64,000 nucleotides of DNA from positions 868,001 to 932,000 of the forward strand of contig OZ237758.1 in assembly GCA_965178125.1 (NCBI GenBank), in the 5' to 3' direction. The translations under genes and the position numbers were made by a program. Below the pieces are notes generated by a model. That model made no database searches, was not told the DNA's origin, and saw nothing but the letters and a program-made list of their open reading frames with translations. Below, one piece after another: positions 3,694 to 63,637 of this stretch. Positions within the stretch are counted from its first letter, which is position 1; each line of letters starts with the position of its first letter. Source of the stretch: Bilabrum cf. latius (lineage: Eukaryota).

Positions 3694-5278
3694 ATGTTTA
3701 AAAGCGGATGCTGGAGTGCATTTAGAGCCTTTGGTGCGCTTGCGGGGACGGCTATGGCAGGAGGTGCACTGAAGAGCCAAATCGTGAGTTGCGCACCTAC
3801 GGATGAACCTTCTGCAGCTGCTGGTGGTGCGTGCGTGGACACCACTAAAGACCACTTGGTGATAACGTTTGGTGCTGGTGGATATGGATAGCTTGGCCAT
3901 GGCTCCGAGCATGATGAAGTGAGGGTTCCGGCCAATCTTAGTGTTGCCTGCTTGGCTTGTGTGTGTGCCGTGAGCGAGCGTTTCGATGAAATGTTTGTGG
4001 CAGTATTCGATTCGACCTCATTGCAGTTTACCGCAAAGCCAGTCGAAGCACTGGAAGGAAAGTCTCCGATACAGGTAGCTTCACACGGATCTGGGACCCA
4101 TTCCATCGTGTCCACATCCGACGGTGCAGTTGCCGATTTCGGCAACGGCAACGAGAGCAGGCTTGGGCACGGATATTATCCTCGCTCGTAGTACGTGCCG
4201 AATCAGGCCGTCCCGAAGTTTCTTGATCATATCGACGGCGAGGTCGTGCAGGTGGCGGCGGGCGGTGTGCACGGCGCCGCAGTGGGCAAGGGAGGCGAGC
4301 TGTGGACCTGGGGCAAGGCTTCCTAGGGTCAGCTGGGGCACAAAGATGCTCGCAAGGGGTATCCTAACCGAGTAGACGCGCTCAGTGGCGTAAAAGTGAG
4401 GCATCATTGAGCGAATGGATGGGAGTATCCTGCTTGCGTCGGCTTGCGTGCATGCTTCCAATCCTGCCGGGGGGCATCATCACCGTGCTGGCATTCCCGT
4501 CTGTCATACATCGCACCGTTCGTTCATCTCGCAGGTAGTGTTCGTGTCTTGCGGTCACAAGCACACGGTTGCGGTGGACGAGGATGGAACGGCATGGTCC
4601 TTCGGTGCCAACAGGGACGGGCAGCTGGGTCTCGGAGACGAAGGTTCCTCCAGGGGGGAGAGCGCCCCGAGGAAGGTGGAGGCACTGGTCAAAGCGGGCA
4701 AGAAAGTCGTGGGGGCTGCGTGCGGCAGCGATTTCACGCTGTTCCTCACGTCGGACGGGCAGATCTGGGCCACTGGAAGCGACTCCGACGGCCAGCTGGG
4801 CCAGGGGCAGCCCACCCCTGGACTGGAGGAGCCCAGCCTGGTGCGGGGCCTGGCCGGGCAAAAGGTGGTCAAACTGGCGGCGGGAGACACGCACGCGCTG
4901 TGCCTGACTGCCAGCGGCCACGTGTTTGCGTGGGGCTCCAACATCAACGGGCAGCTGGGCGTCGGAGACCGGGCCTCATCGGCACAGCCCCGCGAGGTGA
5001 CTGCCCTGGATGAGGGGGAGCTCGACGGCGCGGCCGTGGAGGGGATCGCGTGCGGCGGGGGGCACTCGCTGGCACTGCTCAATGACGGACGGATCCTGGC
5101 CTTCGGGCGCGGGAGGAACGGGCAGCTGGGCAGTGGGCAGCACCTGCAGAGCGTGGCAGCGTACCGCACCACGCCCACGGAGGTTGACTTGGAGCCTGCC
5201 GCAGGTGCGGGGTGCGGCAAGGTCGTGGCAGTGGCAGCCGGTGCCGAGCACTCGCTCGCTCTCTGCGAGCGCCAGTGA
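3694..5278 (+). CDS. RCC1-repeat beta-propeller protein; exons 3694-3918, 4027-4395, 4535-5278; 3 in-frame TAG
   Basis: Repeated FG/WG-x3-GQLG and H-S/T motifs. GTGAG...GCAG introns at 3919-4026 and 4396-4534 restore repeat spacing. TAG at 3889 (FGAGGYG*LGHG), 4189 and 4324. Ends TGA. Confidence 0.85.
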
Positions 5279-5346
5279 GGAGGCCGCACTGCACATGTGG
5301 ACTCGGTCGGGACCTGGGTAGCATACGGGTATCAATACCCGTATAC

Positions 5347-8300
5347 CCGGCGCCGTGAAAGGTCCGCCATTATTGGCATTCCGAGTCCCAAAATCGCGAC
5401 CATCGTGCCTTTAGGCTCCCATTGCTGAGAACTGGACCAATTTCTTGGGTAAATTTACATTGCAAAAATATCTAATGTAACATTTAAATGTAATGCAGTC
5501 CCAACGGAGCCATGCAATTCGCAGCATTAGACTGAAAACGAGTCGTGCTTGCGACCACCATTTTTGGCGACCACCCCCAGCCCAAGATTTTACTCGCTGG
5601 CGAGGGGTGCCAGATGCACGCACCGTGTGCCGCCAAAAAAGCTTTTCTTTGGTTTCTATTGGTACTTAGTAGGTAAACACATACTTTACAACATGTTATC
5701 AGGTCGCCAGGCTCATTCATTTGCAATCCAGCGAAATTTGGCTGCCATTCCAACACACGTCGGTTCAAACGGTTCCAAAATTTGCAGGGCATTTATACCT
5801 TAGCGCAATAGACTTTTAACTCACTGGCACTACTGTTGAGATAAAAGGGTATTGAATGCAATATCATGTGGAGGATTCCGTCTAAGTTTGCGAGAAGAAC
5901 GAGTGGGACGCGATAAAGTGGCTCCAGCGGCGCGTCCGAAGTTGGGTCTCGGGGTGCAAGTGCCCCTGGTGGGAGTGCCTCGTCTCGGCATCACGAGCAG
6001 AAATCCGCCAAACTCAGGCTCATCGATCAAAGTGAGTACGGTATTGTTATGGTTGATGGAATTGCATGGGCTGTAGCCGGCTATTATCGGGGTACCGTAC
6101 AATCTGCCGCAGAGGCACCGGAAGCCACGAATGTGGCACTCATTGACAGTATCCATGCATCCGTGGTATGCTTGACGAGGTGTTGGTTGAATAATCATTC
6201 CATGGTGATGTGGACGAGCTTAAATAATTATACAGAGGTATAATAGGGCCACAATCGGGCTTGCGTCCTGTGCAGAATTGGCCATGCACGGTGTTGCTGC
6301 AAGGCCACTGATATCAGCCTTCATCGCTTATTTGTGCTTAGCCTTCGCAGAAGCATCTCAGTCAATCCCAAAATTCTCATTGGAGTCTTGTAAACCTATA
6401 TCTAGCGTTTCGGTTGCTAGCAAGTAGTCAAGAAGCAGCCCGTCCCATGCGGCCAGTTCGAGCCGACGCGCTGGGTCCAAGCGTAAACGGCAAGAGGACA
6501 ATGCAAATAAATCGACAAAAGATTATGATTTACGTGATTTGTTGGGCGAAGCATAGGCCAGCGATGATGATATGGACTATGTCGGCGATTCAGACGAGGA
6601 CGAGCCGGTATCCAGTCGGTCTGCAACTTTGAGCCGGCCTCCGGTGCAGCATCGTAGGAGGTAGTAGGCTCACCAAGCAAAGCGGCGCAGAATAGAGCAA
6701 TATGAAAGTATGTTTCCTATGGACAAAATTGCATCGTTGGTTGATGAGCCTGAATATAGGTACTTCTTGAATGACCGGGTTGTGATTGGTGGTGATGGGA
6801 TCCCGATCGCTCGCACAGCGGCTACTCATGTGGCTGCTACTGAGTATGTCAATGGCTGGATGACGGCTCATCATGAACAACCAATATCTCCAATACGCAT
6901 TCTGTGCTCGCTGGTGCCTCTCGATATTGCATTTTCGTGGCGAGGCACTGCAGCGGCAGAGGTAGCTGGCCAGGCAGCCGGCCAGCCGGCAGCGACCAAC
7001 CAATGGACATGCCAGTTGCCATGATGTTCCTGGCCGTGGCATTGACTCGGTCTCTCATTCGACCCCGGATACCTTTAGAATTGCTGCAATCAAAGTAGTT
7101 CCTGGTGCGCATGAAAGACGATATCGTAGTGCAAGACTGGAATCGGTTCCATCGAAACTTGTCTTTCGCCGGGAGGTTGCAGGAGGCTCCGGCACCCCTG
7201 CTGGCGGAGGAGCGCGCCACAATGAGGCTAGGGAGTGTGGGCAGTCCTCGCGAGCGGGTACTCATAGAATATCCACCAGGCATGCTAGATGCAGTTTCAG
7301 AGTACTTTCGTGCGGCTACTTTGAGCCCAAAGAGCATCGCCGTCGATGAGATGATGGTGATGGCGTACGGCCGAAATCGGGCATGTGTCATCATGCCGAA
7401 CAAGCCCACATCGCATGGCTTTAAGCTATGGGCAGCTGCACGAAAAGACGGGTATGTGTACCATTTGGATCTAGCAACATCTGTTGCCGATGATACACGA
7501 TAGTACAGAGGGAAGGCTGAGTACTCGTATAAGGTAGCAACCGGCAGCGGCACCGCTGCCGGGTAGCTGACCCGGATGGACCTGCAAACAGCAGCTGTTG
7601 CGTCGAAGGCAATGGGCAAAAACTTGAACGGGGGCCTCCTAGCGGTGGATAACTACTTTACATCGGCTCCACTGTGTGATTGGGCCGCCAGCAAAGGCCT
7701 TCGGGTTGTTGGCACGCTTCGCCAAGGCAAAGTGAGCGGTGAGCTGTACCACGCGATTGGCTAGCTGAACAGACGAACCCCAGGCGAACGCGGGCAGGCT
7801 GTGAAGCGCGCTCTTCTTGGGTCCAGCAAAGTATCTTTATGTAATGTAACAGCTGGTGATGTTTTTGATGCGAGTGAGCTTCCTGCGGGATCGCTGCTGG
7901 CCGAAGAGGACCTTGGCAGTCGGGGCCTGTTGAGCCCTGGCCAGACACTAGCCTTTGACTCGCCAGATGATTCAGCTTATGGGATGCAATTTTTTGGATA
8001 CTGTGACCGCGCACCATTTCTTATGGCTTCTAACATTCCTACGAAGTACTTTGTTTGCTTGGTAAAGACGCTACGGAGAGATGGTGGCGACCTGAGTGTG
8101 GTGAACGCGCCCCTCGTGTCCGTCCTCTACAACAAGTACATGGGGGGTGTGGATCTAGCTGACAAGTTCCGGACGCAACTTTCGCTAACAAATTCATTCC
8201 AGAGAGAGACTAGGGCATACTTAAGAGTGTGGGAAGGTTTAATGGAGCAAGTTATCGTCAATACGTACATCATCTGGGTCAACTTGGAGGCACGTCGACT

Positions 8301-9250
8301 GCTAGATATCTACGCCACGGACCCACTCGTCGGCAAGCTGCTGGAGCTAGCAGCAAATCCGTTCAGGAACAGGTTTAGCACATGGTGCGGCATCGACAGG
8401 CTCGTGGTATGTTTGTGCAGCTGTTGTATGACGAATTGATGCGTCCTTACCGACATGCACGTGCAGGAACTCGCGGTGCTGCAACCTCAGCTGGGATGCG
8501 TGCGGAGGCGACCCCCGGGAACCTTGGATGTAGAAAGCAGCACGTGGTAGCTACGCTGCTGGGCTCGCTCCATTTGATTGGAAAGGAGTAGTTACAAGCA
8601 GGACTGATTAAATTTCTCAGTAGCGGACGATCAAAGAGCCGTCGAGTGGGGTGCAGCGCCAAGTGCAAGGGCTCCAGATGCAGCAAGCGGCAGCATCATT
8701 AGTCGGTTTCTTCCTATTAAGTGTGTTCACGCTGCTGCAAGTTCATTTTTGGGGATTGTAAAGAATCTCTGTATCATCTGGAAACAGGATTTGGCTGTGA
8801 TATAGATTAAGTTGATATAAATGCCAAGTAGATGGATGCACAAGAATCGGGTCGCGAAGCACGTAATTCATGGCAGGTCCACATTCGATTCAATATCTTG
8901 TAAACCGTTCGGTAACTTTTTTGCGCTAAGACTTATATATAATATAACCACCGATTAATTCAAAAAAGCTTGTTTATTTTGCAAGCATGCCTGCTTGGAC
9001 AAACTTCTGCAGTATCAAAGTAGCCCTTCCTGAAAATCGAGCGTTTGGTTTCATGACCACCAAATATACTATTGTCGCAAGTTTATCAATGAGTAACACT
9101 CGCAGTCGATAGTTAACTTATACAATTTTCAATATCTTGATATTATTTTAGGATTACTTGAATGGTACGCGAGAATCGGTAAGGTGAATTGAAGGTACCG
9201 ATATCGGCGATACCGGTCGGTCGGCCAAATCCGACCTTTCACGGCGCCGG
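5347..9250 (+). mobile_element. piggyBac-like DNA transposon, 3904 bp, 18-bp perfect TIRs, apparent 4-bp ATAC target-site duplication
   Basis: CCGGCGCCGTGAAAGGTC at 5347-5364 and its reverse complement at 9233-9250. ATAC at 5343-5346 and 9251-9254. AT-rich subterminal regions and an internal DDD transposase. Confidence 0.85.
6284..8810 (+). pseudogene. piggyBac-family (DDE_Tnp_1_7-like) transposase, probably frameshifted or degenerate
   Basis: Motifs IAVDEMM..YGR...MPNKP..HGFK, VDNYFTS..L, VGTLR and YNKYMGGVDLAD lie in one frame (about 6990-8380) linked through TAGs at 7096, 7501, 7564 and 7762. Frame changes near 6950-7000 and 8380. The Cys-rich tail has an in-frame TAA at 8718. Start uncertain. 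Confidence 0.8.
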
Positions 9251-9400: not shown

Positions 9401-11803
9401 TCAATCGAGGCACCCCATATCTCTCCTCTCGCCCTCGATGGCGGCCCGCACGCCAGGCAGCATGCTCGCGCGTGCCGACCGCGCCCACGCCCACCCTCGG
9501 CTCGCCACGAGTCGCCGCAGTTCAGGCCTCTCGAGGAAATGCGCCACTGCCTCTGCCATGCTCGGTGCGCTGGCCCATGCCACCGCACCCGCCCTAACCC
9601 ACGCGCGGTCCTCCCCGAGGTCCGCCGTGCTGCTCGAGTCCCACCCGCTGCTAGACCCCCGCTGTGTCTCATCTGACACTGCACCAGATTCATGCAGCCA
9701 CAGTGGCAGCTCGGTGGCATCCCCACCGGGTTCAGCCCCCTCACCCTGCAAAGCACCAGAGGTCTGTCCCGCATCCGAAGCAGTGCCGTTGCACTGTAGC
9801 ATCACCAGTGCCTTGGACCCGCCGTTCTTCTTCTTGTTCTTCTTGTTCTAGTCATCCCTTACTGCGCCTGCCCCCACCCACTTCAGACCCAGCTTGGGAA
9901 ACTTCTTTGCACCCTTCTGCCCCTAGTCCGCCACGGCCTCGGTCAGCGCCTCCCCGAAGCTCTCGTCCAGCGCAGCCTCAAGCGAAGGCGCCTCCGCTAG
10001 CACAAAGGCCCCGTCCGCCAGCAGGGGCACGATTCTAGAGGCCTTGCTCTCGTGCTGCAGCCACGAGCCCACGGAACCAGGCCACGCGGTTGCATTCCCG
10101 GGCGAGCCTGAACCTCCACTTCCGCCGGCCTTCACGCATGCCACCGAGGACCAGGTCTAGGGAACAAGGACGATCCTGCTCCTCCGCACCGCTCTCGCCA
10201 GCCTCTCACCGAACAGGCTCTCCGCCGCCACCAGCCGCAACCCCTTGATGCGCCGCTGCAGCTAACCCGTGAGACGCCGCCGGTGCGGGGTGAGTGCGCC
10301 GAAGAACAGGACGTCGATGTCGGTGTGACGAGCGCCGCGGCTGTACACCCGCCTCACACGACCCGCCCGAACCAGTGCCCCGGCCTGGTCCGACGCCCCG
10401 GACAGACCACCACTCTCCGAATCGCCCGCAAACTTTGCCCCGGGTGCCGGGCCCGAGGGGTCCTGTTCTTCTTCGCCGCCGCCTGCCTTGGGTGGGAGTG
10501 CGCCTGCGTGCCCCAGCTTGAGGGAGAGGGCACGGGTTGAGCCCTCGGAGCCTGCCACGGCCTATCCCAGCTCCGCCAGAGCGACCGACTCGGTGTGACG
10601 AGCGAGATCACCGCCCCCGAGCTGCACCGCCCACACTGGATCCACCCCGCGGGGCGGGTGCCTGCCCACTCCCTTTGGGCCGGTGCCCCGCACCGACCGC
10701 CGGATTCCCTCTTGTTCCCTGGTGGCAGCCCGGTGGCGCATCGTCAGCCACGCCGACAGCGCACCCTACGAGTCAGCCGCTGTTCCCTGGGGATCGTCCC
10801 CTTGTTCCCCCACGAGGCCCAGGAGGGGCTCCTGCCTGGCCCGCAGCTGCCTGTCCTCACCGCCAGCCGCACTCGATTCCGATGGCCACTCTCCATCGAC
10901 CAACCACTCGTCACTTGGCTGCTCCTCGTCCCCACCACTGGCACTGCCAGCAGGTCCCGTATGGCTCCGCATGGACGGAGGCACCCCCGGCCCCTCCAGC
11001 CCCACCCGCAGCGCGTCCCCCGCGAGGCCCAGAGGCACCACCCGCGCCTGCACGCCGTGCCAGCGGGCCAGCCGACGGGCGCTGATCGACGATAGGTCCC
11101 AGACGCGGAAGGCACGGAGCATCTGGGCGTACTCGGGGGAGATCCAGCCGCCGCCTCCCGGAAGCACGTGCTCCGTGTTGACGAGGATGGTGCCGGCGGG
11201 CAAATAGCCCAGAGAGGTCGCTCTCGAGGCGATCGAGGTGCTGCGGGCGGGGCGCGCCGATTCAGTGGCAGCACCGGGCTGCGACGAGGTCGAGTTTTCG
11301 TCCTATTGGGCATATACAGGCAGCATCTTGACCCTCTCTGTGGCCACCGCGTGTGCGCCGATCAGGAGCACCTGCGTGCCGTCCCACGACTGCCGGTCGC
11401 ACGCCAGCGATGCTTTGACGCGCCGAGCGAGGTCCGAGCTGTGCTCGTCCACGTACACGCATGCCTACACACTTACAGAGTCTACTTCGGGGGCTGCTGA
11501 GAGAGATCGGTGAAAAGCATTCACGATTGGCCCCAAAACATCCACCTCAGTGTCCGCACCGGCGAGCACGATCGTCCAGGCCCGAGAGCAGGCTCCAGCC
11601 GACCCGGCCAAATGATTTGCCACATACAGGCCATCCGCTTCGTGGGCACCGGCCTTGCCGATTGATAGCAGATTTTCGAGGCCAGAGGAAACGAACTGGG
11701 CTTGCGTTGGAGCGACCGCTTGGGGCAACGCCGCTTCCGCGGACAGTTCGAACAGAGAACCCGCGCAAATTAGGGAAGCAATTAGAGCAGCAATTCGGCG
11801 CAT
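9401..11803 (-). CDS. Signal-peptide-bearing glycosyltransferase-like protein, about 800 aa, 8 in-frame TAG
   Basis: Single frame from ATG 11803 (MRRIAALIASLIC) to TGA 9401, broken only by TAG. Motifs DIDVLFFGALTPHRR, LFGERLARAVRRSRIVL and SRIVPLLADGAFVLAE resemble GT-B glycosyltransferase C-terminal domains. Confidence 0.7.
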
Positions 11804-12031
11804 GGTGGCACAAATTCGAGATGAAAGTGCGCAGTGAAGAGCGAGTGAGTTGCCATTCAACGCACCGGTGGATTGGCTGCGCCAGGCTCCGAGTCACCTG
11901 CACTCGAGCGCACACAAGCACGCACGCAGCACGGCCTGCCTGCCTCGTTAATCGCCGCACGCGCGCCGCAGCTCCTGGATCCATACGCGCTGCACACTCA
12001 CACCGCAATTCCCAGACTTCACCACCACGAA

Positions 12032-36337: not shown

Positions 36338-36393
36338 CACAACAGAAACCAGTCATTGGCAGAGTGCATGTACAGCGTTAAGAACTTTTCTAT

Positions 36394-51728: not shown

Positions 51729-52981
51729 CTTGATTAGTCGATCAGGAAACATTCGGATGCAGGCAGTACGAGACAAGTGCCCAACCCTGCAAGGATTTAC
51801 TCGCTTTATAGAGGCCATCGCTTCACTTGCTCTCCTGCGGGAGGATTGGGAGACGATCCAGGCTGCAGTGGATACGGGTGCTGCAGCAGAGTGCAGCAGC
51901 CTCGAGTTTTGCTGGTGGCGGCAGTAGCAAATAGGACCTGCACCTTCGCCTGCCAATGGCACTTGTATTGCTAGTGTACTGCATGATGGCATGGTAGCCG
52001 CTCCTCGAGGGGCGGCGGCAGGGGCAACCGGTGACGTCGTAATCCGTGTATCTATTGGGTCATTTCAATGCCACTCTATGAAGACGACTTACGCGGACAC
52101 ACCTAGAGTTTTTAACCTTGACCTTAAACGCAAAAATCAGAAAGCATGACTCAACTTGAACAACGCTCAGAATGCAATCGCCACTTTTGCCGCCCAGTAG
52201 CACCATACCCCCGTGATGGACTCCCACCCGGCTGGACCAAAATGTCACCTACATTATGATGCATCACTTCTTTGAGCCACCTCTGCCCCCCGCTGCCCCC
52301 TTTTCGGGTGCTGGTGCGGGCTGTGCCCCGCCTTGCCACCTGGATCCGGATCCGCCCTCTGTACCAGCCGCTTCTTCTCCCGTGTAGCCTTCAGCGCCAA
52401 TAGCGATCATCACTGGAACGAAACAGCGAAAGAAGCACACGCCTACGCACATGAACAAGAATGCCACGTAGAAGAGCGTCTCCGAGTAGCGGCGCACCGT
52501 CCCGTCGCAGGCTAGAGCCCGAGCATTGTTCTGCCAGGTGCCCTTGCTTGCCGCCCGAAGACGGCATACGACACTAGAAGATCAGTAAAATTCGGAGTGC
52601 TCCACCTCGCTCCCTTGTCGCCTACCGCTGTAACGCCGCTCCCGACTTATCTGTGACTGCCGATCCTTCCGACGACGGCATCTGGACGGGGGGGTTGCCA
52701 CCCCTCCTATCCCCCAGCCTAACCCTGAACCCCTCGCCGGGGCCCTCGGGCCCCACCGCCCCCTTCCACATTCCTGCACTGTCCGTGTCCCTCGCTTCAT
52801 CCACCCCGTCCACCTTTTCTCCATTCCACCCACACCCCTTTTCCTTCACCTCAATCACGGCCCACGACATGTCGACTCGCCCAAGCGCTGCGCCCAGCGC
52901 ACGACCTCAGCCTTAGAGGTGCAAGCCTAGATGTGCAAGCCCCTCATGCAATTAGTATGCAAAGATTAAGAAGCCATCATT

Positions 52982-55368
52982 TCACTTTTCCCCCTTGCCA
53001 CCGTCCGCCTCTTTTCCCTCCTTCTCCTGAGGGGGTACCACGGCTCCCAAAGGCTCAGAGTCTCCGATGGCAGCATAGTAAGCGCCATAGTACGCCGCGT
53101 AGTAGTGCGCCTGGGCTAGCTGCGCGCTAGTTGCCGCCCCTTGCACCCAGCCGGCTCCCTCGGGCGGGTCCTTGGCCCCTGGGCTGCCCTCCGGCGCGGC
53201 GGGGCACTGGCTGCAGTACTCCCCCGTGGATGCGCACAGGGAACAAAACCAGTCCTCCTCGGGCTACCGCCGCAGGGCCAGGGTCAGTGCTGGCACAGTG
53301 GCCTGCGTGACCGACCGCACCAGGGTGTGCTGCAGCGTGCGGGCCAGGGGAACAGCCACCGCCTCGGACACCTCTGCCGTGAGTCGGGCAGCTGCCTCGG
53401 GGATGATTGCGGCTGCCGCTTCCCTTGCGATGCGGTCGGCTGCAGGCTCCGCCACTCGCTCGGAGACCATCTGCTCGATGAGCCTCGCGCTCGACTCGGA
53501 TACCGCCTCGCCCGCGGTCTCGCCCAGGGGCGCAGCCACCTGTTCGGCCAGACTCCCAGCCAGCGAGTGCGTGAGCAGCGCATTCACCTCGCTGACCAGC
53601 CCCGGGTCCGCCCCCTGACCCAGATTCTCGTCCAGCGCGCCCCCAAGAGCAGACCCCATCACACCTCCGATGATCGAGGTCACCGGCTCCAGCAAAGTGT
53701 CCATCACCGGCTTCAGCAGACCCGCCAGACCCGCAAACCCGTGGGAAGCGAGGTGCTGAGACCGGGACAAGGACCTCGCCGCCGCTCGCGCCGCCACTGC
53801 CGCCCTGGATCTCGCGTGCAGGCCGCCCTGTGCCCCCGACTGCAGCATGGAAACTTCCTCCGCGAAGCTGGTCCCGCCCTACGTACCACTAACCCAATCG
53901 GTGCCCACCGGCTGCGCCCCGCCCGACCCGATCGCATGCTAGACCCCGTGTGCCCCCGGGGCTCCCTTCACCGGCCAGGGGGCCCTGTTCCCTGAGTCCC
54001 CCTTGCCCCCTTCCACTTCCAGGCAGGACCTGGCGGCGGCATCGGCCGACCGATGCATGGCCAGCGCCCTGCCATGCCCCTCATCTTGCGACCAGTGCGT
54101 GTCCCCATCATGTCCCTATTGTGGGCTGCTCTCTTTGAGGTCTTGCCCGTGGCTAGTTCCCCGCGGGGCGGTACGCTCTCGCCACAACGGCGCGCCCGTG
54201 TCTGCGAGCACCGCAGAGCAGTGCATCACTGGATCGTCCCCGGTCGTAAAGTGCGCCGCAGCTCCTGCCGCCCTCGCCCACTCCACCGGTGGACTCTCCG
54301 GCTGACTGCCCCCACTCACCGACGGCCCCTTCACGCCCGCGCCACACCTTGGCCTCACTTCCACCTGCACGCCCTCCCGCTTGACGGCACTGCTCCACTC
54401 GGCGCCCCCATCCTCCCCCTGGTCCTAGTCCTGGTTGTGGTCCTGGTCGTGGTCCTGGTCCTGGCTGCCGAGGCCCCGTTGCTGCCCGGAGCTGATGGCA
54501 GCTGGCAGCAGCAGCGCCACCACTCTGGGGTGGGAGGCCAGCGCGGGCCCCATGCCTCTGGCCGTCGTGCGCCAGCTGGCAGGCAGTCTGCAGCAAGAGA
54601 GTTACTCCAAGCATGAAATGCGAATATAGTGGACAGCATGCACGCGAGCGGGAGAGGAGGGGCGATGCGGCGTGCATCTATACAAAGGCCAGGGGCGTTG
54701 TTCCTCACGATGAGTGCAGCACCTCCAGTGCGCGTGCATCCACAGGGACAGGGTCAGCTTCGCCCACCGAGGCAGGCTCTCCACCTGGTTGCTGATCCTG
54801 CCGCGAGCCTGGTGGACCCAGTGCCTGCACGGTGCCATGCGAGGCGTGTGCGGCTGCCACGCGGAACACGGAGGGGGCACCGTCCGTGATGACTGGGAGA
54901 ACGGCCGGTCGGACGGTCCATGATGCTCTCTTGACGGCGTCACGACCCTGGTGCGCGCTACCGTTGGTGCTAGTCGGCAGCTCGCACTGCAGCCGCCACG
55001 GCCGGCTCGCTGCAGACGGCTCCATGCACGGCGCCTGCGGCCGGGCCGTGACTTTCGTATTGCATGGCTGTGGCAGATGTATGAACAGCGCCCTGCAGTG
55101 TAATAGGAATTTGCACGAGCGTGTGACAGTCCATGTCGCACATTATCAGTAGTCAGGTGCACACGCTCGTCTGCGACGCAACTCACTCTAGCCAGAGCCT
55201 TAGCGTGGAATTATCCGCACCAGACCAGAATACGGAGGGATTTCGAATCGAAAGCGACGCATGTGCGATTTCATAGGAAGAAACTGGAAATGGCGCCGGC
55301 TCGATCGGAATCGCACGCGATACTACACAAAGCAAGCCCACAATGAGAGCAAGTCGAACACTCTGCAT
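52982..55368 (-). CDS. Secreted protein with a helical region, CxxC...CxxC and Tyr-rich C-terminal motif; exons 55187-55368, 54709-55092, 52982-54587; 5 in-frame TAG
   Basis: Signal peptide MQSVRLALIVGLLCVVSRA. Phase-consistent GTGAG...TGCAG introns at 55093-55186 and 54588-54708. C-terminus WFCSLCASTGEYCSQC...HYYAAYYGAYYAA. Ends TGA. Confidence 0.6.
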
Positions 55369-55581
55369 GATGAATACGCCTGTCTGAATCTGGTTGCGGC
55401 AATCTATCACCTCAATCGAATCTCGGGCATGATTTGGCGGCAGTTGCACCAGACATGATGTTCCGTATTTCTCGCTCGCCGCGCATTGGCGCCGCAAGCA
55501 CCTTGGTGTTGCGGAACCTTGCAACAGGACGGTCGAGCTGCTGGCAAAGAAAGCGCTAGTGCGCCCGTTTTAGAGTTGGAA

Positions 55582-58500
55582 ATGTCCTCCAGCCGGCGAG
55601 CTCCGGGTGTAGATGAGGGTAAGGCACGTACATCTCGATACGAGTGATACTGTATCCGGCAGTATCTGCAAAACTCTGGCTTTTATGCTCTTACACGCCA
55701 GTTTGCGATGCCTCCCGCTAGTCACCACATCTGTGCGCCTACGTCGCTAATTGTGCGCCGCAGAGACAATACGATAGGCAAAGGAAGATGTTGAAAAGCT
55801 GATAGACGAGCGACGAATGCTAAAGGACGGCAGCCACCCGACCTTGATCGCTCGCTCCCAGCTGTTTCAGGCGCAACTCGACAAGAGAGTGCAACAAGCG
55901 GAGTCATATCTGGCTTTCTAGAAGCAGAGCGCCGAGTTGCAGTGTAGGTACGAGCAGTGGGAAGCCAAGCAGCTGTATCGGCAGGCGTACGAGGACGCTC
56001 GCGCAGATCTTGACCGTATGGTTGCCGACAAATTGGAAGAAGCCAGGGCGTTTGCCTCCGGTAGAGGTGAGAACAATTAATCATACGGATGGTCTCTGCG
56101 CGGTTTCACGCGATATGCGTCCCTTACGCCCCAGCCGTCCCGTACGCTCCAGCACCCCTCGTGCACCGACATACGTGCTCTCCCTCGCAGGTCGGCTGTC
56201 CGCCCGCTCCCGTCGGTCAAGGCGGGGGGCTGCCTCAGAAGGGGGCCAGCTTGGGGCATCGTCATCCGCAGGGGCGTCGGGGCCTGGGGCAGCAGCCGCG
56301 GGAGCTGCCGCATCGGGAAGCGCGGGTGGGGTCGCCGCCGGAATCGGGGCCGCTGGCGCCGCGGGCGATGAAGTTCCGCAGGTGCGCATGCCAGGGGAAG
56401 GAGGCATCCACGGGCAGGAGGCCACGCAGGCCGCCGTGCAGAGAGCCGCTGCTGACGCGGTGAGGCACGGTGCCACCGCTGGTGCCCTCCCCGGCCCCCA
56501 GCCCCTGGACCTCCTCCTGGCGGGGGAGACGCCTCTGCCCATGAGTCTGACGAGGGCAGAGGTCATGGACGACATGAGGGCTGTGTTCCTCGACTACAAG
56601 ACGGCGGCCCAGAGGTACGCCAAGGCCACGAGCCACCGCCTGCTGCCCGTGAGGGTGGACAAGGGCGTGCTGTATTGCGGCTCCGAATCCTTCCAGTCCG
56701 GCGAGGCCGTGGTGGTGGTCAGCGAGCTCTCGGCTCAGGCATTCCCCGGCACCCTCATCGGAGCCAACGCGGTGGAGGCGGCCTGCGAGCTAGCAGACGG
56801 GACGAGGGCGAGGCTCCCGCTGGCCTACCTGCGTGCGGGGCGGCTGGTGATCCGCAAGGCGGCGGGGGCGCGGGGCGGGCTGCAGGACCTGGACGCTGAC
56901 CCCCTGCTCAACGGACATGCGTCCAGGGCGCGGGTGCAGGCGGCCACTAGGGCGGTGCAGCGCGCGGCGGCGGTCGCCTCTGAGATTGTGAGGCGGGAGC
57001 GGGAGGCGCTGCCCGTGCGGGAGGCGCTGGAGGAGAGGAGGAGGCTGGAGGCAGAGGCTGCCAGGGAGGCGCTGGAGGCAAAGGCACAGGCCAGAGAGGC
57101 GGCTGCTGCGGCTGCCTCCTCTTCCTCCTACTCCGCGTCTTCCTCCACTCCATCGGGCGCTGCTGCCGGCGCGGGGGCAGGAGAGGGCACCCACGGAAGC
57201 AGCGGTGGGGGTGCAGCTGCTGCTGCTGGCTCTGGCGCTCCCCCCTCGGGCGGTCGGAGGTCGAGGGGGCGGCCGGCGGGGAGCGGTGGAGGGGCCGGGG
57301 GCAGGAGGAAGGGCCGAAACGGTGGGCAGGCCGGGGGATAGCAGCAGCAGCAGCAGCAGCGGCAGGTGATGGGAGCTGCAGGTGCAGGCGAAAGTGAAGA
57401 TGGCCACATGGAGGAACAGGGGCTTGGTAATGCCTCTGGCCAACAACCCATGGAGGGGGGCGATGACGGGGGCAAAGGAGCCCTGGAGGCGCTCAACGAC
57501 GCCGTGGGTGCCGTGGCGGAGGCGGAGCTCGTGGCGGGCGGGGGTGTGGCGCAGGCCCGTGGGGAGTACAGTGGAGGTGGTGTGACGAGTGAGGTGCGGC
57601 AGCCCCCAGCGGTTGAGCCACAGGTGCAAGCACAGCCACAGGCGCAGGCACATGCTCAGCCACAGCCCGGCATGGATGGGGCGCATGGCGAGGGCCCGGT
57701 CGAGTCGTCGGAATCGGGTGCTGCACCGGGGCAGGCCCAGGGAACAGACGGGGATTAGGCCCAGGGAACAGGCGGGGATTAGGCCCAGGGAACAGGCGGG
57801 GATTAGGCCCAGGGAACAGACGGGGAGCAGACCAGTGGTGAGCCGGCGGCCGGGTCAGGAGCTGCAGTCGCGGGCGGCGATGATTTGGCGGGGCAGCCTG
57901 CCCCTGCCCCTTCAGCGGTGCCTGGGCAAGAGGAGCGAGGAGCGGGAGGGCATGGGCGGGGGGCACAGCGGACTGGGTCTTTGTTGACAGGTGCGGGTGC
58001 GGGCGAACAAGGCAAGGAGCAGGAGCAGGGACAGGGGTCCATGGGTGGTGCAGGAGCCTAGGCAGAGGCGGGCGAGGCACAGCTTGTGGCTGCAGGCCGA
58101 GGCCCGGCTGGGTCTGGGCCAGTAGCCGAGAGGACAGTGGTGCCGGCAGCATCTCAGCCAGCGAGCGCAGGTGCAGTGCACGGTGCAGCAGCAGGGCAGA
58201 CCTCTCCTATCCAGTAGCAGTAGGAGTAGGAGGGTGATGATGATGGAAATGCCGAGGTGAAGCATGCGGGGGGGGCTGCGCCTGGCCAGGCCGATGCAAT
58301 GCAAGAAGAGGTGGCTCCTGTGAGCCAGGGCCAGGCACTCGGTGGGTCAGGACCAGCGGCTGTCGCTGCATCGCCTGCTCCATCAGCCTAGGCACCTGCA
58401 TCAGCAGCCTCCACCTCGTCATCCTCGACCGCACAGGCAATGCCTGCACCGCACAGATCCGCGCCATCAGTCCAGCCGATCGAACATGCCAGCGGGGAGC

Positions 58501-58997
58501 AAGAGGGTAGCGGCGCGGGATTGGGACCGGTGGTGCCTCCTACTCTGCCTGGGACACAGACTGCCATTGGGTATGAAGGGGGGGCGCTGGCACTGGCAGG
58601 AACGGGGCAATCGGCAATGAGCGGGAGCAGCAGCAGCAGCAGCAGTGCAGAGGTAGGAGCAGGAGCGGGGGCGGGCGCGTCGACTGGCGGTTCGTCGCAG
58701 CCATCCGGAGCGGGTCCAGTCCTTGGGAGCAAGAGGGCGAGGGGTGACGATGACGATGACGGGGCGGGAGGCGGGTCTGGGGAGGGCGCTGAAGGGGCGC
58801 CCGAGAGAGGGGGGGGCAGCAGCAGCGGTAGTGGGGGGGCAGGGGCAGCAGTAGGGGGGGACGCTGCAACGGTGGTACGACTTGGCGGGGCACCCGTCGG
58901 CGGCAGTGCAGGAGGGTAGGGGGAGGGCGGCGGTGAGGGCGGCGAGCGGCCTGGCAAGGTGAGGGTGGTAGACGGCGAGGGAGAGGGGGAAGGGTGA
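55582..58997 (+). CDS. Sds3/SUDS3-like Sin3-HDAC subunit with a long low-complexity tail; exons 55582-55618, 55764-56066, 56191-58997; about 12 in-frame TAG
   Basis: Coiled coil with LKDGSHPTL. C-terminal module LTRAEVMDDM...VRVDKGVLYCG...DGTRARLPLAYLRAGRLVIRK resembles SUDS3. Phase-consistent introns at 55619-55763 and 56067-56190. Ends TGA. Confidence 0.75.
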
Positions 58998-59117
58998 TTC
59001 GGTCATTGGCGTTGCGTAAGTGCCCAATGTTGATGCATTGAAACCGCTGGCTAAGTTTGGTGAATCTACATCTAATACACTATGTTCCCATGACAAACGC
59101 GAGCTCGGTTTGCGGCC

Positions 59118-59576
59118 TTACTGCCGCGACAGTGATTCTCGTGCCGCTGCCACTGCCTATGAGTCCGCGGCTGGTCCTACGGCGTTGCCTAACTCCTCGT
59201 GCTGTTTCATCCACGAGGCATCCGGGTCATCACGAGGAATAAAAGATGGAGAACCAGCTCGTATCTGTGGCAGCAGATCCATCAAACCCTCCCATCGGTC
59301 CTTTCGTCGAGGCTGCTCTCCTGTTCGCAGCCACTTGATGCCACCTGCACCAGCCCCAGCCACCGTAAGCCTGCAAAATAAATTGTGTAGAAAAGTGCCT
59401 CCACGCTTCCGCTAGACGCGGGTACCACGACCAAATACCGAATGATATGCTTGCTAGTGCCAGACACACTTCACGAGTACGGGACACAGACTCTACCACG
59501 TCACTCACGTCACAATAATTGCAGCATAGGCTGGAAATATTTGAATAGCCGTCTTGAATGATGGGCCCATCTGCAT
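59118..59576 (-). CDS. Small single-TM protein resembling complex I subunit NDUFA1 (MWFE); exons 59509-59576 and 59118-59370; 1 TAG, TAA stop
   Basis: Spliced sequence IQIFPAYAAIIVTLTVAGAGAGGIKWLRTGEQPRRKDRWEGLMD resembles NDUFA1-type proteins. GTGAGT...TGCAG intron at 59371-59508. Confidence 0.5.
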
Positions 59577-59710
59577 GATTGGCCGTGCAGCCGAAATGTG
59601 GCTTCTGCTGCGACACTATACCAGACAAATTGAGGCTATTGTTGCGTTCGATCAAAGAGGCGAACAACTGCAACTTCCGCTGTAGCTACGCACTAGACTC
59701 AAACAACGCT

Positions 59711-60736
59711 ATGGAGCTGCACTATAGTGCTATAGAAGCCATTCATCCACGTGCATTTCAGGAAGAAGCTTTGAAAAGGGGTTTGCGATGCGACGGACGC
59801 AAGCTACTGGAATGCAGGAGAGTTGGTGTTGAAGTTTTACCCCGGGCAGACTATGGCAACTCTGTTCTGGCATCTATTGGATCGACCCAAGTCATTTGTG
59901 GCCTAAGAATATCTAGAGTGGACTGTGGCCCTGTGGCCACCCCAAGTCCTGTTGTTCCGGAGGATGTGCCTGAGCCCATGGAGCCTGATTCAAGCGCTAG
60001 GGCTGCACCATCAAGCGAGGCAGCAGCCCACGAAGCGCACTTTGAGGTCCAGTATTCTGCATTGTGCGGCCAGCATAGTGCTAGGGCCGGTTCGAGCGGC
60101 GTTGGAGCAAGCTCAGTAGGAACAAGACAGCCAAGAGAAGCCATGAGGATATCTCGTCTTCTGCAACGTGTGTTCCAAACAAGCAAATGCCTAGATCTAG
60201 CCAAGTTTCCTTCGGTTCCTTCGGATGATGAGGCTTCAGGCACCGCTAAAGCACAAGCGTGGAAATTGGAAGTAACGTGTATCGTTGTAGTTGACGACGG
60301 GGCGACAGACGCCGCGTGTGTAACCGCTGCCGCAGCGTGCTTATCAGCTGTCACTTTTCCAACTAGCAATGACTCCATTGGCTCCAGCTGTAACCTATTG
60401 GGTCGCGTGCCAGTGGCGCTGTCTCTCGCTATCGTCGCCACAAAATCAACCGTAGACGGCACGTAGCTATTGCCCGATGCAGAAGCTCGGGAAGAGGCTC
60501 TTGCCGAGACTGCAGGTTCAGTGGTTGTGGAAGTTAGCGGATCCCAACCATAGATTCTTGCGATCGATTTTGCTGTGGGCTCTGGATCATTTGCTAGAAG
60601 CGCTGAAGCAACTAGTGTGGCGAAAAAAGCAATAACGTTTATTGCAAGTAATGCAGAAGGTTTGACGTATACTTCCCAAGTCATGTCTGCGATTCGATCT
60701 GTAAGAGAGTGTGCTACAGCACGATCACTCTCGTGA
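59711..60736 (+). CDS. RNA exosome RNase PH-like subunit, most like RRP43; 2 in-frame TAG
   Basis: IHPRAFQEEALKRGLRCDGRKLLECR, NSVLASIGSTQVICG, AWKLEVTCIVVVDDGATDA. The LLPDAEAREE motif lies beyond the TAG at 60464. Second TAG at 60551. Ends TGA. Confidence 0.82.
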
Positions 60737-61382
60737 CAATGAACTATGCTTTGATCGATTAGATTCATAGTGACAAAAAACGCTCTTGATCGTGCTCGGA
60801 CACTATATCACACAATCAGTCAACGTTTGATAAGTCTTTGTAATATTTTTTTGGGCGCTCCATGATATAATTAATTATACTTTCTGCTAGTTTGTTTCTC
60901 ATGCGGTGTTTCAAATACTTCTGAACGGAGTGAATTGTAGTCGATGTGCAAGGTGTTTCAATTCATGATTTTACGTATTTGAGCCCAGGAACAGTTTCAG
61001 ATCCCAACCACAACCACTAATCGTTTTGGGGCCCGCCCGCCGGCGAGTGTATGCCAACTCTCCGTTTACAATAGTAAAAATAAGACTCTTCATATTATTC
61101 AGGTCGCAATTTAATTTGATTGTTTACAATTTGCATGCTGGTACTGCGCTAATTTCCGATAGAATTCCTAAAGGTACAAGTTTTCCTATCATCTTCTCAT
61201 GGGCTGAGGCTTTCGACCCGGCTATATCAAATGTCTGCTAGTATCCAATTTGGTCAAAATTTCTTAATGATCGTTACTTTTTCTTTGTAGTCGACATGAT
61301 TACGATGCAATGTATCTTAACTGTGATTCAAATGTTGCAAATTTCAAAATCCCTTTCTTGCCAAAGGCAAACAAAGGCGTTC

Positions 61383-61741
61383 ATCCTTGCGATCGATTTT
61401 GCTGTGGGCTCTGGATCATTTGCTGAAGCAACTTATGTGGCGAAAAAAGCAATAACGTTTATTGCAAGTAATGCAGAAGGTTTGACGTATACTTCCCAAG
61501 TCATGTCTGCGATTCGATCTGTAAGAGAGTGTGCTACAGCACGATCACTCTCGTGACAATGAACTATCCGGATGCTTTGATCGATTAGATTCAAAGTCAC
61601 AAAAGACCATCCGAATCGTGAGAGTATGCTCTTAGCAACATAATTACACAATCTGTCTACGTTTGATAAGTCTTTGTATTATTTTTGGCGCTCCATGATT
61701 TAATTTCTTTCTGCTAGTTTGTTTCGCATGCGGTGTTTCAA
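61383..61741 (+). pseudogene. Diverged partial duplicate of the RRP43-like 3' end and 3' flank (source about 60554-60914)
   Basis: Near-identical CTTGCGATCGATTTTGCTGTGGG...CGATCACTCTCGTGACAATGAACTAT...ATGCGGTGTTTCAA, with small indels and no 5' part of the gene. Confidence 0.85.
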
Positions 61742-62101
61742 CTGTTTTAGATCCACGGTAGTTGAGTTGTGATTCCAATTTGTCAATTTCTTAATCCCTT
61801 GCTTGTCGAAATTAGTGTGACGCACTGTTATCACATTATCCCATATTTACAACCGATGCTCAATTGCATGACATTGCATCGAACATGTCCACGTGTAATT
61901 GTGCTACAAGTAAGTGAGACTGCTTCGGCATATTGCAGGCAGATGCAGTACACATGCTCACCAAACATAGCATGCAGTATGGAACGGGCTTGATCAGCAA
62001 AAGGTGATCAAGAGTTACTGACAAGAAATAATATTGATCATTGTATGGCAACATGGATACAGTTAATCTAACTGGAGCATGATAAGAAAAATTGTATAGA
62101 T

Positions 62102-63637
62102 TCAATCAATTGCATTCAGAATTGACGTTGTAGTTGTCGCGAAAAGTGAGAACACCCCAAACAGCATCAGAGCTGCACTCGGTAGAATCTCTTGTAGCAC
62201 AGTGGAGCATGACGTAGGGGCATCCTCACCCCGCCAAATGACTAGGCGAAGGGCACCTGGCATAATAAAACCAATGATCGTTGCACTCACCCCTCCTGTA
62301 AGCTCTAATACTATTCCTAAATCCTCGACGACCATTGCAATCCCAACAGTTGATGCCCAAATCAACAGAGATACAGCTACATGAGACCACATGCTCAACT
62401 CAAGCTTAGTCCTGACTGCTTGCTAAACTGCAACCCGAGATGGTTCAATATCTTCTGCAGCAGGTGCTGATGCGCTACTTTCGTCGTCAACAAGGGAGGG
62501 TTGGTGACCACCCTGTTCATCCTCCACTTCCATGTAAAGACCAAAAAGAGAGCCAATACAATGCCGAACAACGAACACTTCCATTGGATAAGTGAGTATC
62601 ATAGTAGCTGCATACCCAACACGAGTTAAATTGGCCCACTCGTCGGAGTCCTGATAGTTGTTAAGTACATTTGCCATTGTGACTCCCCCAAACGTAACAT
62701 AGCCAACGACACCAAGGCAAATCGAAGCCAGAAATGCAACTATGAGGCTTAGTCGAGCAGTGTGTCGCCAAAGATCCAACGAAGGCTCGTCAAGACTATG
62801 GAAAACCAAAAAGCTGTTATGGTGGCAGACGTATGCAAATGCAAACACTCCTATCGATGGTAACGCGTCCTTTCCAAAAAGCACAACGCCATCGCTTTCA
62901 TCTTGCGCATCAGATGCTGAATCGGTTTCCCCGGCGCCCGTTGCTAAACGAGCGATCGTAAAAGCCAATATCCATGCGACTGCGGCCAGAGAAATTCCCG
63001 AAGACCAAGACAGGGTTGACATGTTTCCAACCATCGAAAGCGGCAAAACAACAACAAATGCAACACCCCCTAGAATGACTCGCCGCAACCAGCTAGGAGG
63101 ATCATCATCGTCTCCTATAGCCCAGTGGGCCACAACTGTGCTCAAGGTATCTGTCATGATAATCAGGTACGCGCAGCAAGCACCATAGCCGAATAGGGCG
63201 TTGGCAATGTTCACAGTGGCCCACCCATAGTTACCAAACACCCTGCCTGCCAGTGATTCGTAGTCTTTCTCGTGCAGAAGTACGCCTAGGCGTATGATCA
63301 AGGTCACGCCAAAGTACGTCGCAAGCGCGATTCCAAGCAAGAGAATAGTTCCCAGAACGATCCCAGCCTCCTACATTGCGAAAGGCAGCCCAATGATCCC
63401 GGCACCAATAATTGAGTTAATGAAATTTGAGCTCGCACCAAGCATAGTTGATCCGTTTTGCTGCTACTAACGCTACTCCGCGCTGTCCTACTGCTTGACA
63501 GGGGCAAAGACAGCCGTTTGTTCCTGATGGGTCTGCCCCGCACTGGTGTCCCGACTGGTGGCACCACCCTCCTCAACCGGCACAGAGGGAGTACTCCTGA
63601 CACCAGATAGTTCTATTTCTTCCAACTCGTCAGCCAT
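62102..63637 (-). CDS. Amino acid transporter, Aa_trans/SLC38A11-like, 511 aa, 6 in-frame TAG
   Basis: NFINSIIGAGIIGLPFAM*EAG, FAFAYVCHHNSFLVF, ILTYPMEVFVVR and DLGIVLELTGGVSA motifs, with multiple TMs. Ends TGA. Confidence 0.9.

Follow-up and report, generated by a model that had tools for sequence, protein, structure and literature searches.

Introduction

Few nuclear genetic codes give UAG and UAA different meanings; the accounts in PMC5304391 and PMC11687900 place them in a single fornicate, a single rhizarian, one genus of green algae and a small number of ciliate lineages. For the fornicate Iotanema spirale, Panek et al. (2017, PMC5304391) give a nuclear code in which UAG encodes glutamine while UAA and UGA are stops, together with a predicted mechanism that combines a tRNA-Gln(CUA) with an altered eRF1, whose GTS motif is reported to carry T32G. 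The same change of UAG alone to glutamine is attributed to the ciliate Protocruzia tuzeti and to two phyllopharyngean ciliate lineages (McGowan et al. 2024, PMC11687900), and other uncoupled UAG codes are listed for Rhizaria sp. exLh (leucine), Scotinosphaera (serine) and Oligohymenophorea sp. PL0344 (UAG glutamate, UAA lysine) (PMC5304391, PMC11687900, PMC10553269). Reassignment of both UAR codons to glutamine is given for many ciliates, ulvophycean green algae, Hexamita, Streblomastix and Amoeboaphelidium (PMC11687900). In a further group of codes, described for Condylostoma, karyorelicts and UAA in Blastocrithidia, a codon is stop or sense depending on its context, and the same codon that is read through also ends genes.

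The window analysed here is a 64-kb stretch of DNA in which TAG occurs within genes as a sense codon, TAA and TGA act as stops, and UAG is very probably read as glutamine. On that assignment its codon table, with UAG alone changed to glutamine and UAA kept as a stop, is identical to the one described for Iotanema. The form in which only UAG becomes glutamine is NCBI table 15. Iotanema is described as an anaerobic metamonad known by its transcriptome, whereas the window organism has GC-rich DNA (62%) and is marine, its habitat being judged by the sequencing runs that contain it. The window also resembles what is described for Protocruzia and the phyllopharyngeans, where UAG is glutamine and UAA was not reassigned, and the code would have arisen independently in each. 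The window differs in carrying, on a single 64-kb contig, several genes of multi-kilobase size on each of its strands and GT..AG introns of 94–145 nt; the genomes of ciliates usually have a high AT content. With the UAR codes it would share a change from stop to glutamine by a single base in a tRNA-Gln anticodon (predicted here), but in those codes UAA and UAG are both sense, while in the window TAA terminates and occurs 0 times in frame. As in exLh, Scotinosphaera and PL0344, UAG changed independently of UAA, but the amino acid differs, glutamine being found at 9 of 11 comparable sites here. In-frame "stop" codons in ordinary genes are likewise a feature of Condylostoma, karyorelicts and Blastocrithidia; unlike in those organisms, the codon was not seen ending genes in the 64 kb of the window. 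The change of UAG alone to glutamine is already a known kind of code, of which the window lineage looks like a further case.

Gene content and in-frame TAG codons

Genes were modelled with only TAA and TGA as stops, and 16 ORFs were accepted as genes. Together they hold 79 in-frame TAGs, distributed over both strands of the 64-kb window, which agrees with the 75–80 TAGs in 17 genes counted in the original prediction. Four ORFs have no TAG: EF-1alpha, an FAD oxidoreductase, a VWA gene and the second RCC1 piece. Neither tRNA genes of any kind nor Rfam matches were found in the 64-kb window. The features between 3616 and 44107 are as follows.

3616–5275, plus strand: RCC1-repeat gene (Pfam RCC1, WD40_RLD); TAG at 3889, 4189 and 4324
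3616–4407 and 4400–5275, plus strand: pieces of the RCC1-repeat gene, with an inferred intron between them
6877–8436, plus strand: piggyBac-type transposase ORF; TAG at 7096, 7501, 7564 and 7762
9404–11893, minus strand: conserved gene of 830 codons, no assigned family, matched by the relative's fragments P0213, P0212 and P0211; 8 TAGs, starting at 11467, 11305, 10768, 10564, 10264, 10159, 9925 and 9850
12035–14047, minus strand: CNOT11 gene (Pfam CNOT11, E 6.5e-47); TAG at 13882 and 13252; TGA end
15054–16505, plus strand: EF-1alpha main exon; 0 TAG; TAA stop at 16503–16505; GC3 0.89
16783–18684, minus strand: 634-codon ORF, no assigned family; TAG at 18633, 18594, 18582, 18504, 17547 and 17376; GC3 0.80
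20867–25003, plus strand: long tandem-repeat ORF (24-nt x 78 repeat, PAQQAGAG units); 7 TAGs, all outside the repeat
36394–39030, minus strand: kinase-like plus HEAT gene; TAG at 37893, 37236, 37038 and 36534; TAA stop at 36394–36396
39239–42499, minus strand: four-TM2-domain protein (Pfam TM2, E 2.9e-29, 4 stretches); TAG at 42139, 40993 and 40198
43586–44107, minus strand: exon of an NF-Y/histone-fold gene (Pfam CBFD_NFYB_HMF, E 5.8e-12); TAG at 43933

Most of the gene identities proposed earlier were borne out: CNOT11, RCC1 and the SLC38-like transporter (Aa_trans) by Pfam matches, deoxyhypusine hydroxylase (DOHH) by a match to PDB 4d4z (E 2e-71), and the RRP43-like gene by Pfam RNase_PH together with PDB RRP43. 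Two were not confirmed, namely "SCY1-like" for the gene at 36394–39030, where Pkinase (E 0.003) and HEAT (E 0.0015) are both sub-threshold, and "NDUFA1-like" for a small gene at 59118–59369, for which Pfam gave no match. PDB alignments to HERC2/UVR8 extend across the TAGs of the RCC1-repeat gene, and three TAGs of the transposase ORF lie within its DDE_Tnp_1_7 domain (Pfam, E 3.5e-13, residues 139–304). Pfam resolves EF-1alpha into GTP_EFTU plus the D2, D3 and C-terminal domains, and also identifies CXXC_Zn-b_euk in the window. The ORFs at 16783–18684 and 20867–25003 have no match in Pfam, and the strand of the former was picked by ORF content alone, its region lying outside the RNA comparison.

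Stop triplets in frames fixed by homology

ORF length was rejected as a discriminator between codes: ORFs of at least 300 codons numbered 86 with TGA as sense and 71 with TAG as sense. Since ORF length does not discriminate in such GC-rich DNA, counting was moved to frames fixed by homology, and, because ORFs delimited by TAA and TGA cannot hold either codon, a non-circular test was obtained by counting these stretches only. The set comprises 10 stretches with 3867 codons, in which the frame is set by Pfam, PDB or relatives' proteins. In frame they contain 20 TAG, 0 TAA and 0 TGA, whereas the two other frames of the same stretches contain 47 TAG, 24 TAA and 140 TGA; given the off-frame TAG share of 0.223, the probability that all 20 in-frame triplets are TAG is 9e-14. 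Within these stretches the earlier statements that the genes lack internal TAA and TGA and that conserved domains run on past TAG both hold, the latter for 20 TAGs.

Gene ends had been predicted to be mostly TGA, with TAA at 16503, 36394 and 59118. Among the 16 ORFs checked, 13 end in TGA, and all three TAA stops were seen (16503–16505, 36394–36396, and 59118–59120 on the minus strand), the TAA of EF-1alpha closing it at the usual C-terminus. No gene demonstrably ending at TAG was seen in the 64-kb window.

TAG codons in transcripts

Transcript evidence came from assembled contigs of runs X5, X6 and X7 (studies P2 and P3), with DNA run X1 for contrast. Automatic labels call X5 "probably DNA" and mark X6 and X7 only as "RNA?"; the assignment to RNA rests on splice joints and a poly(A) end: six GT..AG or CT..AC joints were found in X5, X6 and X7 and none of them in X1, and a loose end of 24 T at 59065 in the transcript contigs marks a poly(A) end. 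The intron lengths given above are those of the joints. The comparison covered seven genes between 44001 and 64000, within the following features.

44581–47009, plus strand: exon of a weak DJ-1/PfpI-like gene, after intron 44481–44580 (Pfam sub-threshold); TAG at 45264, 45627, 46452 and 46593
47975–49051, minus strand: DOHH, single exon (PDB 4d4z); TAG at 49009, 48451 and 48226
49095–51725, plus strand: ORF, no assigned family; 11 in-frame TAGs
52985–54587, minus strand: gene, no assigned family; 5 TAGs; introns 54588–54708 and 55092–55185 upstream
55848–58994, plus strand: low-complexity gene; 10 TAGs; introns 55618–55762 and 56065–56188
59118–59369, minus strand: 3' exon of the small gene; TAA stop at 59118–59120; intron 59370–59507
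59579–60733, plus strand: RRP43-like RNase PH gene (Pfam RNase_PH, E 1.7e-10; PDB RRP43); TAG at 60464 and 60551
62105–63658, minus strand: Aa_trans (SLC38-like) transporter (Pfam Aa_trans, E 1.4e-61); TAG at 63490, 63475, 63469, 63466, 63373 and 62425

In the DJ-1/PfpI-like gene an X5 contig crosses the GT..AG joint from 44480 to 44581 and runs on to 46821 with 0 differences, and DOHH is matched by colinear RNA contigs from X5, X6 and X7, again with 0 differences. An X5 contig is colinear from 49198 to 51198 with 0 differences and spans 8 of the 11 TAGs of the ORF at 49095–51725, for which a homolog search of the near-length class came back empty, candidates having probably been swamped by low-complexity words. 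X5, X6 and X7, but not X1, show CT..AC joints for the gene at 52985–54587, and its contigs span 5 of 5 TAGs, while X6 and X7 contigs span 5 of the TAGs in the gene at 55848–58994. In X5, X6 and X7 the small gene shows a CT..AC joint as well as the poly-T loose end, both TAGs of the RRP43-like gene lie within RNA contigs of the same three runs, and the transporter is covered by an X5 contig, colinear from 62111 to 63649 with 0 differences. By hand tally, the transcript contigs are colinear with 0 differing letters over 33 of 41 TAGs; the remaining 8 lie in parts without listed RNA cover and are left out of the conclusion.

TAG is thus present in contigs of spliced, polyadenylated RNA, and introns, editing, assembly error and pseudogenes are therefore excluded as its source. 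What little probability could still be granted to an unchanged code, in which the TAGs would come from any of these, is close to nil: the genome does have introns, of the size given above, but real introns are removed from the contigs of three runs that retain the TAGs, the in-frame triplet is only TAG and never the commoner TGA, and the same pattern occurs on an independent DNA contig (L001, below).

Amino acid read at UAG

Proteins of a relative that are 88–95% identical to those of the window could be aligned to 11 TAG sites, of which 9 are glutamine and 2 lysine; at a glutamine frequency of 0.043, the probability of at least 9 is 3e-11. The relative's DOHH (P0001, 95% identity) has Q, K and Q at the three TAG sites, Q also stands opposite TAG-96 in its Aa_trans protein P0121, and P0213, P0212 and P0211 (88–92% identical, spanning residues 92–830 of the gene at 9404–11893) have Q six times and K once. 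Both lysine sites lie in poorly conserved stretches. Glutamine is also the residue of human DOHH at TAG-276 and of a distant homolog, P0215, at TAG-579.

Within the window itself, a 24-nt repeat at 57733–57826 has CAG (57732) and TAG (57756, 57780 and 57804) at the same repeat position, and TAG 3889 falls within the G-x-L-G of an RCC1 repeat, where the gene's 6 other repeats read GQLG in 5 cases. Q is the residue most enriched beside TAG (2.7-fold). A neighbour-profile likelihood was ambiguous on the residue, with E, G, D and K slightly above Q. Columns drawn from 120 DOHH and 90 Aa_trans distant homologs were mostly uninformative: the DOHH-276 column (A 56, Q 34 among 120) is too variable to name a residue, and the Aa_trans-96 column has R 30 and K 30 of 84, Q not being among the listed residues.

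TAG makes up about 13% of glutamine codons. Its share falls as GC3 rises (Spearman -0.71, P 0.001), and the most codon-biased genes, EF-1alpha, the VWA gene and the FAD oxidoreductase, have 0 TAG. Pyrrolysine decoding of UAG was rejected, since it would be expected in a few specific genes, as against 79 TAGs over 16 unrelated genes at sites that align with glutamine.

I conclude that TAG is a sense codon, because it is found in spliced polyadenylated transcripts, is the sole in-frame "stop" in homology-fixed frames and corresponds to glutamine at 9 of 11 sites in the relative, while TAA and TGA act as stops; the central claim of the original prediction is upheld by these three lines. Judged from the sequence comparisons, there is high confidence that the nuclear code reads UAG as glutamine and that translation continues to terminate at UAA and, chiefly, at UGA.

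Relatives and placement

The relative's database proteins are fragments ending or starting at TAG sites: P0213 stops exactly before window TAG-197, P0212 ends at the position of window CAG-503, and P0121 begins just past a window TAG cluster. A second relative is represented by a metagenome ortholog of the Aa_trans gene (L001, 60–68% identity) on an independent DNA contig, found with a three-sequence alignment as the query after the Aa_trans protein alone had given no confirmed locus. It has four internal TAGs and no TAA or TGA, ends in ...ML-TAG-TAA, and one of its TAGs aligns to E in the window. With ORFs broken at or next to window TAGs in one relative and in-frame TAGs in the other, the trait is therefore shared by a clade, and being common to at least two relatives it originated in their common ancestor.

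In a single-gene FastTree of DOHH, built from the best 120 matches, the window and five other sequences fall within a 57-sequence group with oomycetes and ochrophytes (support 0.99); in this tree the window sits with stramenopile and alveolate sequences. There were no ciliates among the best DOHH or Aa_trans matches bearing a name, an ESM Atlas search with EF-1alpha gave generic eukaryote clusters only, and a full-text literature search did not find a description of such a lineage. A further, possibly undescribed, independent lineage of UAG-only change, as originally suggested, is plausible. That it is an undescribed independent origin of UAG-only glutamine, in a clade of GC-rich, aerobic, intron-bearing marine protists outside ciliates and metamonads with at least three members (the window organism, the 88–95% relative and the 60–68% metagenome relative), has roughly an even chance.

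Alternative readings of the code

It is unlikely that the code is ambiguous, with UAG as glutamine inside genes yet terminating some of them by context, much as in Condylostoma, the karyorelict ciliates or Blastocrithidia with its UAA. The terminal TAG-TAA of L001 would fit, as would several window ORFs with the last TAG just 25–45 codons ahead of TGA or TAA and the small gene of unconfirmed identity at 59118–59369, where TAG stands 12 codons before TAA (hand count). On the other side, in four TAG-free ORFs no stop triplet of any kind precedes the terminal TAA or TGA, the RRP43 coding frame continues past its last TAG and is duplicated along with it, and up to 11 TAGs per gene need efficient decoding. 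Smaller still is the probability that both UAR codons are glutamine, as in the ciliate, dasyclad and hexamitid code, and that TAA is too rare in this GC-rich genome to appear in 64 kb. TAA is indeed the rarest trinucleotide of the three (239, against 451 TAG and 717 TGA), and UAA and UAG usually change jointly (PMC5304391, PMC11687900), but homology-fixed codons include 0 in-frame TAA against 20 TAG, CAA is in use (85 CAA against 71 TAG, hand sum over 18 ORFs), and TAA stands at the expected C-terminus of EF-1alpha and also ends two further genes, one with poly(A) about 55 nt downstream.

Very improbable, too, are readings in which UAG stands for Lys, Glu or Leu instead of glutamine, or in which several near-cognate tRNAs all decode it. 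They could account for K at 2 of 11 sites in the relative, the L001 TAG opposite E in the window and the mainly K and R composition of the Aa_trans-96 column in distant homologs, and UAG is known as Leu, Ser or Glu elsewhere (PMC11687900); yet Q stands at the other nine sites at 88–95% overall identity, CAG and TAG alternate within one repeat, and the GQLG motif and Q-run contexts favour Q. Glutamine for UAG alone is accordingly the preferred reading.

Mechanism and significance

Decoding would be expected to use a tRNA-Gln cognate to UAG, whose CUA anticodon differs by one base from that of tRNA-Gln(CUG); such an anticodon would pair with UAG and not with UAA. Recognition of UAG by eRF1 may have been lost or weakened at the same time, and a GC-rich genome with TGA-dominated termination could have made TAG stops rare enough for capture.

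Each uncoupled case tests how eRF1 discriminates UAG from UAA, and tests stop-codon capture. A GC-rich lineage with TGA as the main terminator and TAG at the above share of glutamine codons is a contrast to the ciliate cases. Standard gene callers shatter such genes, as the fragments of the relative illustrate, and under the wrong table the clade's annotations, BUSCO-type scores and metagenome protein catalogues are therefore wrong. A genome assembly and several transcriptomes exist, so if the present reading is true the suppressor tRNA, eRF1 and the codon-capture route in a GC-rich, TGA-terminating genome could be studied directly, for the first time in a UAG-only lineage.

Gene content of the window

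Reading the window with TAG as a sense codon gave about 20 genes on both strands, and family and structure searches identified the following products:

CNOT11
EF-1alpha (14437-16505)
FAD-dependent oxidoreductase
VWA/TPR protein
protein with four TM2 domains
Aa_trans (SLC38-like) transporter
piggyBac-type transposase (region 6224-8436)
RCC1-repeat protein
deoxyhypusine hydroxylase (DOHH; PDB 4d4z, E 2e-71)
RRP43-like RNase PH protein
NF-Y histone-fold protein
CXXC zinc-binding protein

The gene labels of the original prediction were borne out for DOHH, CNOT11, RRP43-like, SLC38-like and RCC1. 'SCY1-like' was not confirmed, with kinase and HEAT scores below threshold only, nor was 'NDUFA1-like', for which the Pfam search returned no match. 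Neither tRNA genes nor Rfam families were found in the 64-kb window. Its GC content is 62%, dropping to 46% across the last 4 kb; the transporter locus (60001-64000) has 46% GC vs 62-65% for most of the window and a gene GC3 of 0.45-0.47, and a metagenome contig with the orthologous locus (L001) likewise has 46% GC.

Several features of the window are recorded here in their own right. EF-1alpha has an intron after the exon encoding GHLIYKCGG, and a lysine-rich stretch of ~35 residues upstream of the VRFVPISG motif that is additional to the usual protein. Two tandem arrays are both very large: a 24-nt unit repeated 78 times (22516-24384), read in frame as PAQQAGAG units within ORF 20867-25003, and a 16-nt unit repeated 208 times (32867-35901), which is strongly strand-asymmetric (GC skew -0.5 over 32-36 kb), gives PRTPPRSYPSS-like text in an open frame and is probably non-coding. 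A direct duplication of ~300 bp (60554-60850 and 61383-61686; 84-99% identity in four blocks) comprises the 3' end of the RRP43-like gene and downstream sequence, its second copy falling in 61343-62009, where RNA contigs give no cover. A tandem duplication of 174 bp (1593-1940; 2.0 copies, 98% identity) lies in the lower-GC left end.

TAG is the only stop-type codon found within homology-fixed frames

In-frame TAGs numbered 79 across 16 ORFs, which agrees with the 75-80 originally predicted, albeit for 17 genes. Reading TGA as sense yields more long ORFs than reading TAG as sense; the length of an ORF says little where GC is high, and ORFs bounded by TAA or TGA cannot hold these codons, so counts were restricted to stretches whose frame and extent were set independently by Pfam domains, PDB alignments or relatives' proteins. 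Ten such stretches (3867 codons) contained 20 TAG, 0 TAA and 0 TGA in frame, vs 47 TAG, 24 TAA and 140 TGA in the other two frames (P = 9e-14 for 20 of 20 TAG, were in-frame stops drawn from the off-frame mix). Decay or sequence error was rejected as the source of the TAGs, since TGA would then have predominated. The predicted absence of internal TAA and TGA held in all ten stretches.

The same absence argues against a joint reassignment of both UAR codons, in that TAA never occurs in frame although CAA is in use. TAA and TGA are kept as stops, as predicted: TGA terminates 13 of the 16 ORFs checked, and TAA closes EF-1alpha at its usual C-terminus, the kinase-like gene, and a small gene with a poly(A) site ~55 nt downstream.

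Glutamine-type codons summed over 18 ORFs came to 71 TAG, 390 CAG and 85 CAA, which makes TAG ~13% of them and almost as frequent as CAA. The TAG share declines with higher GC3 (Spearman -0.71, P 0.001), being highest in GC-poor genes, where it reaches at most one third (in the GC3-poor transporter), and zero in EF-1alpha, the VWA gene and the FAD oxidoreductase. TAG therefore behaves as a minor synonymous codon and not as a leaky stop. TAG is also the sole interrupting codon in the transposase region, with four in ORF 6877-8436 and four more in frame 6224-7021, which overlaps the ORF start. The element seems to follow the variant code of its host, which would make it resident and possibly still active.

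TAG is retained in mature mRNA

All sampled words of the window were present in four runs of one sample (X1-X4), and 59-78% in three runs of two other studies (X5-X7). X1, a DNA run, and X5-X7 were compared with window 44001-64000. X5-X7 showed six joints, each leaving out 94-145 nt bounded by GT..AG or CT..AC; X1 had none of them (0/6) over that interval. X5-X7 also showed a loose 24-T end at 59065; depth was gene-dependent in X5-X7 and even in X1. X5-X7 were read as transcriptomes, the automatic labels being only 'RNA?' and, for X5, 'probably DNA'. Their contigs were colinear with the genome over seven genes of 44001-64000:

DOHH (covered in X5, X6 and X7)
transporter
RRP43-like gene
genes of unknown function at 44581, 49095, 52985 and 55848

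By a hand tally of the listed pieces, the contigs of the three runs retained TAG at 33 of the 41 positions in these genes with 0 differing letters; the remaining eight fall where no contig piece is listed and are uninformative. With real introns spliced out nearby, the TAGs are therefore neither intronic nor edited, bearing in mind that assembled contigs could miss a rare edited form.

TAG corresponds to glutamine

A close relative is known from database ORF fragments, which are prokaryote-style calls that end at stops and have a GTG start read as M. Opposite the three TAGs of the window's DOHH gene, its unbroken copy (95% identity) reads Q, K and Q; its transporter (95% identity) has Q where the first transmembrane region of the window gene has TAG; and three fragments of gene 9404-11893 (P0211, P0212 and P0213; 88-92% identity) span seven TAG sites with Q at six and K, within a poorly conserved lysine-rich stretch, at one. 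Overall, Q was found at nine and K at two of 11 sites (P = 3e-11 given Q as 4.3% of residues). TAG-276 of DOHH is Q in human DOHH, and TAG-579 of gene 9404-11893 is Q in a homolog of 36% identity. Within the window, one TAG occupies the Q position of a G-Q-L-G motif in the RCC1 gene, where five of the six other repeats have GQLG; at one position of a 24-nt repeat (57733-57826), the first unit reads CAG and the three units after it TAG; and TAGs occur within Q runs. Alignment columns of distant homologs were variable at TAG sites, and a likelihood from flanking residues left Q indistinguishable from E, G, D and K. The alignments with the relative show UAG to correspond to glutamine.

Relatives of the window lineage

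One fragment of the relative's 9404-11893 gene (P0213) ends directly before the window's TAG-197, another (P0212) at the site of CAG-503, and its transporter (P0121) starts just past a cluster of four window TAGs. The relative's genes therefore likewise carry stops in frame, at Gln positions or close to them. P0211 and P0212 derive from equally long contigs. The metagenome contig L001 (3836 nt, 46% GC) carries a transporter ortholog (60-68% identity) that is interrupted four times by TAG, never by TAA or TGA, and closes with TAG-TAA; the segment between two of these internal TAGs is the database protein P0122. In public protein catalogues, the genes of this clade (P0121, P0122, P0211-P0214) appear as TAG-cut fragments with GTG starts as M, and annotation by standard callers is therefore systematically wrong for this clade.

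The best named DOHH matches were oomycetes (47-48%), then other stramenopiles. In a FastTree phylogeny of the 120 best matches, the window sequence first joined five sequences without a taxon name, and then nested in a group of 57 containing oomycetes and ochrophytes. This placement, from one gene, is only a lead. Near-identical shares about the size of EF-1alpha turned up in marine metatranscriptomes and are left out of the evidence. Runs X1-X7 carry the window sequence at 99-100% identity under three organism labels from three studies, which reflects either one organism labelled differently or one living with other cultured organisms.

Discussion

Retention in spliced transcripts, exclusive occurrence in homology-fixed frames and Q at nine of 11 sites in the relative uphold the prediction that TAG is a sense codon, and indicate that UAG is decoded efficiently as such. 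As set out in Panek et al. 2017 (PMC5304391), CUA is the only anticodon pairing with UAG but not UAA, a single mutation converts tRNA-Gln(CUG) to tRNA-Gln(CUA), and Iotanema eRF1 was proposed to carry T32G in its GTS motif. From such established knowledge, UAG would be read by tRNA-Gln(CUA), and eRF1 domain 1 must presumably have lost affinity for UAG. In my view, heavy TGA termination in a GC-rich genome may have eased the capture of TAG.

Reassignment of UAG alone to Gln is described in PMC11687900 and PMC5304391 for Iotanema spirale, Protocruzia tuzeti and two phyllopharyngean ciliate lineages, and reassignment of UAG to Leu for a rhizarian, to Ser for Scotinosphaera and to Glu for one oligohymenophorean. 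The window code has the same form as the UAG-only Gln group, so this kind of code is already known. The window lineage does not resemble any of those listed: its DNA is GC-rich, its contigs are long and hold many genes with ordinary introns, and its best matches are stramenopile-like. A search of full texts, mainly from outside subscription journals, returned no fitting description of the lineage, which may already be described. The evidence supports a code that reads UAG as Gln and keeps UGA and UAA for termination, in a clade comprising three or more taxa, and a lineage with this code is of high interest for research on genetic-code evolution.
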